Shown in pieces: positions 15,485 through 16,531 of a stretch of 28,681 nucleotides of DNA; position 1 is the first letter of the stretch, and the number at the start of each line of letters is the position of its first letter. Origin of the DNA: a virus (Duplodnaviria > Heunggongvirae > Uroviricota > Caudoviricetes); the IMG/VR virus record IMGVR_UViG_2563366854_000003, positions 1-28,681 of that record; one strand, given 5' to 3'. The translations under genes and the position numbers were made by a program. The notes below the pieces were generated by a model. That model was given only the letters and a program-made list of their open reading frames with translations, was not told the origin of the DNA and made no database searches.

Positions 15485-15528
15485 GCGTTGTTAGCTCAGC
15501 CGGACAGAGCAATTGCCTTCTAAGCAGC
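15485..15528 (+). pseudogene. Truncated tRNA-Arg (anticodon UCU, argO-like) 5' fragment
   Basis: GCGTTGTTAGCTCAGCCGGACAGAGCAATTGCCTTCTAAGCAG has acceptor 5' strand, D-arm and a UCU anticodon arm, but no canonical T-arm or complementary 3' acceptor strand (ACAACGC) follows. Confidence 0.4.
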
Positions 15529-15895
15529 TGTGGTTGCACTCCTGTTGTTTCTGGTGGTGATGGTGGACTTCAGCAGCCGGATAATGTCGGTGCTGTCTGA
15601 TGGTGTTTTGGTGGCGGGTGTGTGGTTGTTGCTTTCCCGTTGCTGAAAAAGAAAGCATCAGGCGATTAGCAGGGTATCAGTTACCCGTTGAAATTTTTAA
15701 ATACCTCACAATTCCACAGCTTGATGATTGTCTGGCTGCCGGAGAATTTGTTAAAAATTACATCGCATGGTGAATCCCCCTGTGCGGAGGGGCAATCAGC
15801 GAGTAGGTATATGGGATAATCGCGGATTCAGGTGCTGGTACTGAATTCACCGGGAGGCACCCGGCACCATGCAATGGCACATAGCGCCACTCTCC

Positions 15896-15930
15896 AGCCC
15901 CTCTCCGGAGGGGCTGTTTATATTGATTTT
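15896..15930 (+). terminator. Putative intrinsic terminator (AGCCCCTC-TCCG-GAGGGGCT hairpin + U-rich tail)
   Basis: Perfect 8-bp GC-rich stem, 4-nt loop, followed by GTTTATATTGATTTT. Confidence 0.45.
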
Positions 15931-15950
15931 GTCAGATGTGAGTAAACTCC

Positions 15951-16286
15951 TTATGGACTTTGTTGTTTTAGTCCATAAGGACATATTTGCAGAGTGCAAC
16001 GGTTATTAAAGCATTCATTCAATACGTTATCTGTATTTGTAGGGCATTCCTGGCTGTTTTTGATTAAATTCCAGAATGTTTTATTGAATGGCACTACGTT
16101 GTAAATGGTTACAGGTAGCACTTTGTTATTGAGCATGATGCCTGTGTGAGTCAGTGTAAATATACTTTCAGGAGGTAAGAAAGCATCCGATTGATACCAG
16201 ATTATTAATTTTATTTTACTCCATATGACTGAAAAAGATATTCCGCATGATGGCTGGATAACTGTATCAATCACAATCCACTTCAT
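15951..16286 (-). CDS. Orphan hypothetical protein in the AT-rich segment at the stx-equivalent position
   Basis: 111-aa ORF with a good AAGGAAA RBS 6 nt upstream of its ATG; AT-rich codon usage unlike neighbouring phage genes; Cys-containing C-terminus; no recognisable family. Confidence 0.4.
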
Positions 16287-16531
16287 TTAGTTTCCTTGTT
16301 TATGCCTTGCTGGTGATGTTCTGAAAAGTATAAATGATATTTTTGATTGTAAACCATAGAGCAGAATTATTTTTCTGATGTTGTTTATTGTTTATTTAAA
16401 TGCAGGGTGGTTTATATCTCGTCTTGTAGTTTATCCATGCATATCTGCTTGATGATGAGGTTTTTATTTAAGGTATGGTTTTGTTTTTTTTCTGTATTAC
16501 ATGTCAGGTATTTTAAAGAATCATTTTTCAG

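Follow-up and report, generated by a model that had tools for sequence, protein, structure and literature searches.

Escherichia coli K-12 encodes, next to e14, the anti-adaptor IraM (YcgW/ElbA), a PhoPQ/Mg2+-starvation-induced protein that acts on RssB and for which a crystal structure of IraM(1–78) with RssB is available (PDB 8TWD). In uropathogenic E. coli CFT073, the related protein IraL (c1429) is encoded by the prophage of the potB island (Hryckowian et al. 2014, PMC4045071). Immunoblot, two-hybrid and pull-down experiments showed that CFT073 IraL binds RssB and stabilizes the stress sigma factor RpoS in log phase, and it was reported to bind RssB differently from IraM and to be active in log phase in the absence of stress (PMC4045071). 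Transcription of the CFT073 gene begins at a sigma70-type start site of its own, which was mapped during log phase, and the same report mentions a −35 point mutation of the promoter in some strains (JJ1886 variant; PMC4045071). A fur mutant of CFT073 contains more IraL, and a shift to 37°C raises iraL mRNA (PMC7157518, PMC12890032).

A second element described from the same type of late region is the STnc100 small RNA, which is found just downstream of stxB in Stx2 phages (PMC12370729; PMC12711010). EcOnc27/sRNA103 of O157:H7 overlaps this family, and PasD of EPEC is a relative of it (PMC12370729; PMC12711010; bioRxiv 10.64898/2026.05.13.724894). This O157 homologue is a discrete Hfq-associated RNA according to work cited in PMC12711010, and STnc100 RNA was detected by RT-PCR in STEC vesicles (PMC12370729), with primers that match the sequence analysed here exactly.

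We analysed a stretch of 28,681 nucleotides (hereafter the window, always meaning this whole stretch), which constitutes the Caudoviricetes record IMGVR_UViG_2563366854_000003, and focused on the interval from 15485 to 16531. Very probably, this interval is an accessory stretch of a kind already well known, part of a lambdoid late region that is of the Stx-phage type but lacks stx, and located in a defective prophage next to ompW. In the annotation of an identical record, the terminase large subunit, portal and tail genes of the prophage are truncated. The features of the region are as follows:

12817–13638: Q-type antiterminator
14213–15262: DNA methyltransferase (Pfam N6_N4_Mtase)
15312–15387, plus strand: tRNA with a CAU anticodon, ileZ-like (ARAGORN; Rfam tRNA, 72.5 bits)
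15395–15471, plus strand: tRNA-Arg (UCG), argN-like (ARAGORN; Rfam tRNA, 58.4 bits)
15485–15526, plus strand: 42-nt 5′ stump of argO, the third tRNA (tRNA-Arg UCU; alignment with the intact argO of 933W and CFT073)
15530–15646, plus strand: decayed DUF3927 mini-ORF, occupant of the 933W stxAB position (Pfam PF13064; alignment)
15735–15925, plus strand: STnc100-family small RNA gene (Rfam RF02076)
15895–15916, plus strand: intrinsic terminator hairpin, 9-bp GC-rich stem, tail TTTATATTGA (terminator scan)
15951–16286, minus strand: iraL coding sequence, 111 aa, predicted RssB anti-adaptor of the IraM/IraL/RssC family
16287–16319, minus strand: iraL 5′ UTR, with an inferred transcription start at 16319
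16327–16353, minus strand: iraL promoter (−10 TATACT at 16327–16332; −35-like TTTACA at 16348–16353)
16547–18403, plus strand: nanS-p type SASA carbohydrate esterase, right border of the cargo slot (Pfam DUF1737, SASA, DUF6645)

Most landmarks named in a first-pass annotation of this DNA were recovered with Pfam, ARAGORN and Rfam, namely Q, the methyltransferase, tRNA-Ile CAU, tRNA-Arg UCG, NanS-p and, downstream of the interval, a holin, which is of the P21 type (Pfam). The CAU tRNA is called tRNA-Ile by PGAP and tRNA-Met by ARAGORN. The pT-ileZ-argN-argO′ block of 933W is 91.6% identical to the window (BLAST), and BLAST homology with 933W breaks off at 15526, within argO. What remains of the third tRNA aligns with the first 42 nt of the argO genes of 933W and CFT073, UCU anticodon loop included, before the sequences diverge. 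Its D arm, its anticodon stem-loop and the 5′ strand of its acceptor stem are retained, and the T arm and the 3′ acceptor strand are gone. A complete argO cloverleaf was called neither by ARAGORN nor by the Rfam tRNA model, even at E ≤ 5. The third tRNA is thus a 5′ fragment, as had been proposed, and its breakpoint is shared with strain DA33133 (alignment). On the other side of the interval, the nanS-p gene, homologous to 933W p42 (BLAST), starts at 16547 as in the PGAP annotation of the identical record, an alternative in-frame ATG being present at 16532. The earlier description of the interval as markedly AT-rich applies to its right part only (15926–16531, 32.5% GC), the left part (15485–15925) having 51% GC, as does the whole window.

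The absence of a toxin gene was likewise borne out, as the ORF list contains no AB5-toxin ORF between the tRNAs and nanS-p and as BLAST against the 933W stretch that includes stxAB yielded no similarity. The stx position of 933W (from the 3′ half of argO through stxB, L002 4338–5748) corresponds to 179 bp of the window (15527–15705), and window positions 15706–15925 correspond to the STnc100 segment that comes after stxB in 933W. Nothing but the tRNA stump and a DUF3927 mini-ORF with a frameshift occupies the toxin position itself. This 28-aa remnant reaches 41.6 bits over profile positions 18–40 of 53 (PF13064), versus 95.6 bits for the CFT073 homologue. Compared with the intact 43-aa CFT073 gene, it has lost 1 nt, and its 5′ end, hence its N-terminus, has been replaced (alignment). 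The remnant is not an intact ORF matching the profile from end to end, and PGAP reports a frameshifted pseudogene at 15560–15669 in the identical record.

Next to it lies a full-length STnc100 gene, and the interval, which had been described as an orphan segment, holds both this small RNA and the decayed DUF3927 in addition to the minus-strand ORF. The match to RF02076 scores 133.7 bits (gathering score, 47) and covers model positions 1–206 of 206, untruncated and with the terminator helix included. In 933W, STnc100 begins 75 nt after stxB (L002 5778–5983) and scores 207.7 bits, for approximately 71% identity to the present copy, which is a recombinant of two tandem copies found in strain DA33133. 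The gene lies where known members lie, between the place of stx and the sialate esterase gene; unlike in Stx phages, however, there is no upstream stxB on which this RNA could act. Neither inspection by eye nor a promoter scan revealed a convincing plus-strand sigma70 promoter upstream of 15735, so that STnc100 RNA may come from the processing of a longer transcript. The convergent intrinsic terminator previously noted is real in the sense that a strong plus-strand hairpin exists (−20.3 kcal/mol, z = −4.55), but this hairpin forms the final helix in the covariance model of STnc100. On the minus strand, it is located 35 nt beyond the iraL stop codon and is not followed by a U-tract. Its primary role is to form the 3′ end of the small RNA on the plus strand; it is not a structure dedicated to the ORF.

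The minus-strand ORF had been reported to possess a good ribosome-binding site, which is the case (AAGGA at 16293–16297, 6 nt upstream of the ATG), and to belong to no recognizable family, which is not. By its sequence, this 111-aa ORF is iraL, an already characterized gene, and is neither new nor an orphan. Its product is identical to IraL of CFT073 over 111 of 111 residues, with one synonymous difference in the first 107 codons, and both proteins share the RefSeq accession WP_000871291.1. The NCBIfam model NF007393 (IraM) is matched at 162 bits (cut-off, 121) over residues 1–110 of 111, and chain A of PDB 8TWD (IraM) matches residues 1–78 with E = 9e-32. A Pfam scan of the 111-aa protein and of the small flanking ORFs returned no family for the former, Pfam having no IraM/IraL model. 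As NCBIfam and PDB both identify the protein, this null result reflects a gap in the library rather than novelty, and scans based on Pfam will therefore keep calling iraL an orphan. When the AT-rich segment was shuffled 2000 times, an ORF of at least this length arose only 5 times, dN/dS between paralogues is 0.10–0.17, indicating purifying selection, and no evidence contradicting the identification as iraL was found.

Using the list of IraM contact residues given in PMC10844676, 11 of the 15 positions contacting RssB are identical in IraM and IraL, a comparison made at the level of sequence only. Contact cluster I is fully conserved (5/5), cluster II retains three of five residues (T13S, L75I) and cluster III two of four (H63N, I64V), Pro66 being identical as well.

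The upstream region of iraL is very AT-rich (29% GC). Its 5′ UTR matches 31 of the 32 bases of the CFT073 5′-RACE sequence ACATCACCAGCAAGGCATAAACAAGGAAACCA (PMC4045071), and the −10 hexamer TATACT, located 7 nt before the start, is the same in CFT073. As assigned by reading the sequence, TTTACA is separated from TATACT by a short spacer of 15 nt. Compared with CFT073, the start site and the ribosome-binding site are unchanged, and two substitutions fall in the 40 bp that precede the start, the first immediately 3′ of TTTACA and the second at −1, a promoter variant shared with strain DA33133. A generic sigma70 scan missed this RACE-mapped promoter, and its three other hits have no further support. 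A search for PhoP boxes gave one site with one mismatch upstream of iraL, at 16382–16398, but the total of eight in the window does not exceed chance expectation (6.0 ± 2.3); a literature search for the iraM PhoP box provided no usable sequence. The suggestion that the ORF is a late-expressed gene can be set aside, since iraL lies on the strand opposite to the late operon. The term moron remains apt for an independently transcribed accessory gene antisense to that operon (the start mapped in CFT073 and the −10 hexamer are both present), although not for a new one.

The arrangement is widespread. Among 5426 complete E. coli genomes, iraL and its promoter were detected in 1446, and almost all of these carry the segment of gene and promoter with an identity of 95% or more. 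In 1419 genomes (approx. 26% of complete E. coli), the 1047-bp interval is present over 80% or more of its length. The arrangement is ordinary, being found in about a quarter of these genomes, and the significance of the present window is accordingly small: the gene, the mechanism of its product, the promoter and the neighbouring small RNA family are all already known.

In sum, the interval consists of an argO stump, a DUF3927 mini-ORF, an STnc100 gene ending in its terminator and, convergent with it, a minus-strand iraL preceded by an AT-rich promoter. Studies of IraM and of CFT073 IraL, to which the present protein is identical, suggest how the latter would work. In the lysogen, iraL would be transcribed from its sigma70-type promoter, independently of Q and PR′, and its product would bind RssB, the ClpXP adaptor, and block the delivery of RpoS to ClpXP, so that RpoS would be raised in exponential growth. 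By homology with IraM–RssB, residues 1–78 of IraL are predicted to form a PmrD-like β-barrel that spans the two domains of RssB together with the helical linker, and that would occlude the α4-β5-α5 face of RssB, where RpoS binds. Identities, coordinates, synteny and conservation of the interval come from direct comparison; the expression of iraL in the present strain, and the action of its product on RssB there, are what we infer.

Several other readings of the locus were considered. The segment from the STnc100 terminator to nanS-p could be a dedicated minus-strand cargo slot, holding either AsxR or an IraM-family gene, whose occupant would be on in the lysogen, from a promoter of its own, and shut off at induction by head-on, Q-antiterminated transcription. 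We regard this as rather unlikely, although, if true, it would couple RpoS stability to prophage state. It also seems improbable that iraL mainly serves the phage and not the fitness of the host, the prophage setting host RpoS and thereby tuning lysogen survival or induction, with a putative Q-dependent antisense shut-off at the lytic switch. Consistent with such a role, IraM-family genes recur in this slot and in every case run antisense to the late operon and converge with STnc100 (in the window, CFT073, DA33133 and phage 1717). From the late promoter region up to iraL, the only terminator that faces rightward transcription in the window is the STnc100 hairpin. However, the present prophage cannot finish a lytic cycle, yet the gene stays intact, and the published phenotypes are at the level of the host (PMC4045071).

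To a comparable degree, we doubt that iraL is a silent passenger of a decaying prophage, with an intact coding sequence and an expression absent or too weak to affect RpoS. Local decay is under way, since the prophage is defective and its argO and DUF3927 are degraded. The two promoter-proximal substitutions relative to CFT073 and the 29% GC of the upstream region could also be read in this sense, as H-NS silences very AT-rich DNA. Conversely, the ORF is intact and encodes a protein 100% identical to that of CFT073, three independent iraL loci differ only synonymously, and the −10 hexamer, start site and ribosome-binding site are unchanged. Moreover, the promoter variant is also that of DA33133, and the near-uniformity of the segment in almost all 1446 carriers argues against silence. 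Finally, the replacement of stxAB by a novel, family-less ORF acting as a new late-expressed or independent moron, as initially suggested by the lack of an stx ORF from the tRNAs to nanS-p, the silence of Pfam on the ORF and the 32.5% GC of its surroundings, is hardly credible, as it is contradicted by the position of iraL to the right of STnc100 and by the presence of the arrangement in approximately 26% of complete E. coli genomes, and is already refuted by the identity with characterized CFT073 IraL and by the coexistence of stx2c and an IraM-family gene in phage 1717.

The closest relative is CFT073, in which the order is the same as in the window: tRNAs, DUF3927, STnc100, iraL (minus strand), an esterase remnant and a P21-type holin. 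The two loci differ in location (the potB island versus ompW) and in state of preservation, as argO and DUF3927 are intact in CFT073, whereas the window has a truncated argO and a frameshifted DUF3927; conversely, nanS-p is truncated in CFT073 and full length in the window. K-12 IraM and IraL share 62% amino acid identity over 107 residues without gaps. All four C-terminal cysteines are conserved between them, and IraL extends four residues further at the C-terminus. Unlike iraM next to e14, iraL lies in the late operon region, and promoter and regulation differ between the two genes, since DNA similarity ends at the start codon.

In the Stx2c phage 1717, stx2cAB, STnc100 (after stx2cB, as it follows stxB in 933W), the IraM-family gene gp43 on the minus strand and nanS-p succeed one another, and this IraM-family gene is also present in the Stx2c/Stx2a phages 2851, LC159 and Stx2a_WGPS6/8. 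It occupies the same slot and strand as iraL, between STnc100 and nanS-p, and is a distinct third paralogue (75% amino acid identity to IraL, 65% to IraM), with an upstream region homologous to that of iraL (approx. 74.5% over gene and promoter). Of the 5426 complete genomes, 236 contain it, most of these being O157:H7 or other STEC, and our literature search retrieved no experimental characterization of it. RefSeq names both IraL and this Stx2-phage paralogue simply ‘IraM’. The presence of an IraM-family gene of their own beside stx2 in Stx2c-type phages may merit separate attention; if its product bound RssB and stabilized RpoS, this would account for the high RpoS levels in log phase of EHEC isolates without iraL.

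In 933W, the same slot, from right behind the STnc100 terminator to nanS-p, carries on the minus strand the anti-small RNA AsxR of 933W/Sp5 (Rfam RF02703), a 53-nt RNA, as opposed to the protein gene iraL, and without sequence similarity to the window. Neither AsxR nor any other 933W sequence between STnc100 and nanS-p was detected in the window by BLAST or Rfam. As STnc100 follows stxB in Stx phages and iraL lies further right, iraL is not in the toxin position but one module beyond, past the STnc100 segment; and as both coexist in phage 1717, a toxin and an Ira gene are not alternatives. The absence of stx should not, then, be taken to imply its replacement by whatever precedes nanS-p. Across these phages and prophages, the ‘toxin slot’ is in fact a row of separate modules, namely the tRNAs, stx or DUF3927, STnc100, AsxR or an Ira gene, and nanS-p.

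The interval between the tRNA genes and the nanS-p esterase gene (15485-16531) is built from known elements, arranged in a way that is very common, and its 111-aa minus-strand ORF is an already known gene, iraL, whose product is an RssB anti-adaptor stabilising RpoS. The first-pass annotation had read this segment as new orphan cargo in the toxin slot of a Stx-type phage; this reading is rejected here, even though the anatomy it described is largely correct. The landmarks that it named (Q, methyltransferase, two tRNAs, esterase, holin) were located, the esterase carrying DUF1737, SASA and DUF6645 domains and the holin being of the P21 S type. 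The main features are as follows:

12817-13638, Q-type antiterminator
14213-15262, N6/N4 methyltransferase
15312-15387, tRNA(CAU)
15395-15471, tRNA-Arg(UCG)
15485-15526, 5' stump of argO, the third tRNA of the cluster
15530-15646, DUF3927 mini-ORF
15735-15925 (+), full-length STnc100-family sRNA gene
15951-16286 (-), iraL

The proposed truncation of the third tRNA was confirmed, as the stump matches the first 42 nt of argO base for base in both the Stx2 phage 933W and uropathogenic Escherichia coli CFT073, UCU anticodon loop included, and similarity ends there; neither ARAGORN nor the Rfam tRNA model called a tRNA on it, even at E <= 5. A toxin ORF is likewise absent, since the interval contains none and shows no resemblance to 933W stxAB. 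The AT-richness attributed to the whole interval holds for its right-hand part (15926-16531, 32.5% GC), whereas 15485-15925 has 51% GC, the window's own value. In this AT-rich segment the 111-codon ORF, preceded as described by a good RBS (AAGGA, 6 nt before the ATG), is longer than expected, such a length being attained in 5 of 2000 shuffles.

This ORF had been assigned to no recognisable family, an impression probably owing to Pfam, which has no model for it. Other matches nonetheless identify it: the ORF scores 162 bits against NCBIfam NF007393 (anti-adapter protein IraM; cut-off 121), residues 1-78 align with IraM in PDB 8TWD (E = 9e-32), and the protein is 100% identical to the product of C_RS06710 in the potB-island prophage of CFT073, the genes differing by a single synonymous change in 107 codons and the proteins sharing a RefSeq accession (WP_000871291.1). 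Identity to the K-12 paralogue IraM is 62%, without gaps. C_RS06710 is iraL (c1429) of Hryckowian et al. 2014 (PMC4045071; locus name per PMC12890032). The 5'-RACE sequence of iraL mRNA, ACATCACCAGCAAGGCATAAACAAGGAAACCA (PMC4045071), is matched at 32/32 bases in CFT073 and at 31/32 in the window, which places the transcription start at 16319 (-), with a TATACT -10 hexamer at 16327-16332. Loss of a conserved coding frame, which would have spoken against a gene, was not observed: dN/dS is 0.10-0.17 among IraL, IraM and the paralogue of Stx2c phages, and all differences among three iraL loci are synonymous, indicating that the frame is under purifying selection. The novelty claim thus fails because the gene is already known, and not for want of coding conservation.

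The mode of action is drawn from published work, with which the sequence agrees. In the crystal structure of IraM, residues 1-78 form a PmrD-like beta-barrel that bridges both RssB domains together with their segmented helical linker, and covers the alpha4-beta5-alpha5 face where RpoS binds (PMC10844676). Of the 15 residues given there as contacts, IraL shares 11 and differs by T13S, L75I, H63N and I64V; the cluster III and cluster II changes fit the somewhat different RssB contact reported for IraL versus IraM. The C-terminal tail, described in IraM as less conserved, flexible and removed for crystallography (PMC10844676), contains four cysteines (residues 81, 92, 97 and 102; QECP ... C-x4-C-x4-C-PYG) that IraL, IraM and the Stx2c-phage paralogue all retain and that could constitute a metal-binding or redox element.

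IraL is more abundant in a fur mutant of CFT073, and a shift to 37 C raises iraL mRNA. Between the two expression modes suggested earlier for the putative moron, late or independent, the second is predicted, because iraL runs antisense to the late operon from a start site of its own. The remaining uncertainty is limited to the expression of this allele, which shows two differences from CFT073 near the promoter and lies in a decaying prophage. Of the PhoP-box-like direct repeats in the window, the best match (TGTTTA-TTGTT-TATTTA, one mismatch) is that at 16382-16398 (+), 63-79 bp ahead of the iraL transcription start; overall, such sites are no more numerous than chance allows in DNA this rich in AT. 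The phage 1717 paralogue has CGTTTA-TTCTT-TGTTTA at the equivalent place (L007, the 1717 locus, 4922-4938) within surrounding DNA about 25% diverged, and a weaker site, oriented likewise, is present at K-12 iraM (L003 7048-7064).

The chromosome NZ_OZ547038.1 (locus L001) of an E. coli from a human blood culture matches the interval, and the tested stretch 14200-18800, with 100% identity; it is annotated with a lambdoid prophage inserted next to ompW. In this prophage the genes run integrase, excisionase, exonuclease, dicB/DicF, repressor region, hokD/sok, DUF968, RusA, Q-type antiterminator, DNA methyltransferase, two tRNAs, the interval, SASA esterase (nanS-p type), class II holin, lysozyme and head/tail genes. 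As several of the latter are truncated in the annotation, the prophage is defective: a truncated terminase large subunit adjoins an N-terminally truncated portal gene directly (approx. 23086-23998; L001 23602-24514), and a minor tail protein L fragment comes after the tail assembly chaperone (26699-26845; L001 27215-27361), a tape-measure gene being absent from the annotation. DicF next to dicB (4537-4588 (-), 76.7 bits) and sok next to hokD (10617-10792 (+), 120.5 bits) are nothing out of the ordinary for Qin/Rac-like prophages; the early/nin region holds an unusual-looking cargo gene, for epoxyqueuosine reductase QueH (9884-10549 (+); L001 10400-11065), known from annotation.

Among 5426 complete E. 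coli genomes, 1446 carry iraL and its promoter (15940-16400), nearly all at >=95% identity, and 1419 carry >=80% of the 1047-bp interval; K-12-type iraM is found in 3937, and four non-Stx phage records carry iraL. Three variants were distinguished:

CFT073: complete argO and DUF3927, with a single copy of STnc100
DA33133 and many others: argO stump, two tandem STnc100 copies; interval of 1514 bp versus 1047 bp
Window: argO stump, one STnc100 copy

The window STnc100 gene scores 133.7 bits (Rfam RF02076, gathering score 47). The supposed convergent terminator is a real and strong hairpin (15895-15916, -20.3 kcal/mol, z = -4.55, T-rich tail on the plus strand), but it is the final helix of this sRNA. 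No convincing plus-strand promoter was seen upstream of the sRNA gene, whose product may therefore be released by cleavage of a longer transcript, either the late one or one from the tRNA promoter. STnc100 has been connected to the Hfq-bound sRNA EcOnc27/sRNA103 of O157 (PMC12711010) and, in a 2026 preprint, related to PasD, which immediately precedes the esterase gene. The two tandem copies found in many iraL prophages are diverged (L004, the DA33133 locus, 3251-3444 and 3720-3908). The 5' 58 columns of the window copy equal DA33133 copy 1 and the remainder equals copy 2 except for one base, so that it looks like a recombinational deletion between the copies within the shared GCATGGTGAATCCCCCT core. 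Compared with the intact 43-aa CFT073 gene, the DUF3927 mini-ORF between the argO stump and STnc100 has lost 1 nt and its 5' end, and PGAP flags a frameshift. RefSeq treats the same DNA inconsistently (15530-15669 (+); L004 3046-3162), as a frameshifted pseudogene in NZ_OZ547038.1 and as the intact 38-aa WP_000226111.1 in NZ_CP029574.1; a partial 'hypothetical protein' annotated antisense inside STnc100 (15761-15880 (-)) is probably spurious.

A third IraM-family paralogue (L007 4503-4826 (-); NC_011357.1 26252-26575), directly after stx2B-STnc100, occurs in Stx2c and some Stx2a phages (1717, 2851, LC159, WGPS6/8 and others) and in 236 of the 5426 genomes, mostly O157:H7 and other STEC. Its amino-acid identity is 75% to IraL and 65% to IraM, and its promoter region is homologous to the iraL one. 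The >=95% criteria used for BLAST and PCR in PMC4045071 would miss it, so that it could be the 'additional mechanism' invoked there for EHEC isolates that lack iraL but have high RpoS in log phase.

The claim that the orphan segment occupies the toxin slot does not survive alignment of the window with 933W across argO-stxA, from which a modular map was drawn. Window 15161-15526 corresponds, at 91.6% identity, to 933W pT-ileZ-argN together with the initial 42 nt of argO. The rest of argO, the stx promoter region, stxA and stxB (933W 4338-5748) correspond in position to the DUF3927 remnant (15527-15705), 15706-15925 corresponds to the 933W STnc100 segment, and 933W 5985-6188 corresponds in position to iraL and its promoter (15926-16546), nanS-p coming next in both. 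Thus iraL is found one module rightward of the toxin position, where 933W has the anti-sRNA AsxR (5985-6037 (-)). There, AsxR abuts the STnc100 3' end (5983) on the opposite strand, both converging round one terminator region, which is the geometry of STnc100 and iraL in the window. STnc100 itself lies 75 nt after stxB in 933W (L002 5778-5983, 207.7 bits) and after stx2cB in phage 1717, the position after stxB being also reported in PMC12370729. Phage 1717, in the order stx2cA, stx2cB, STnc100, IraM-family gene (-) and nanS-p, holds both, so that toxin and Ira gene coexist.
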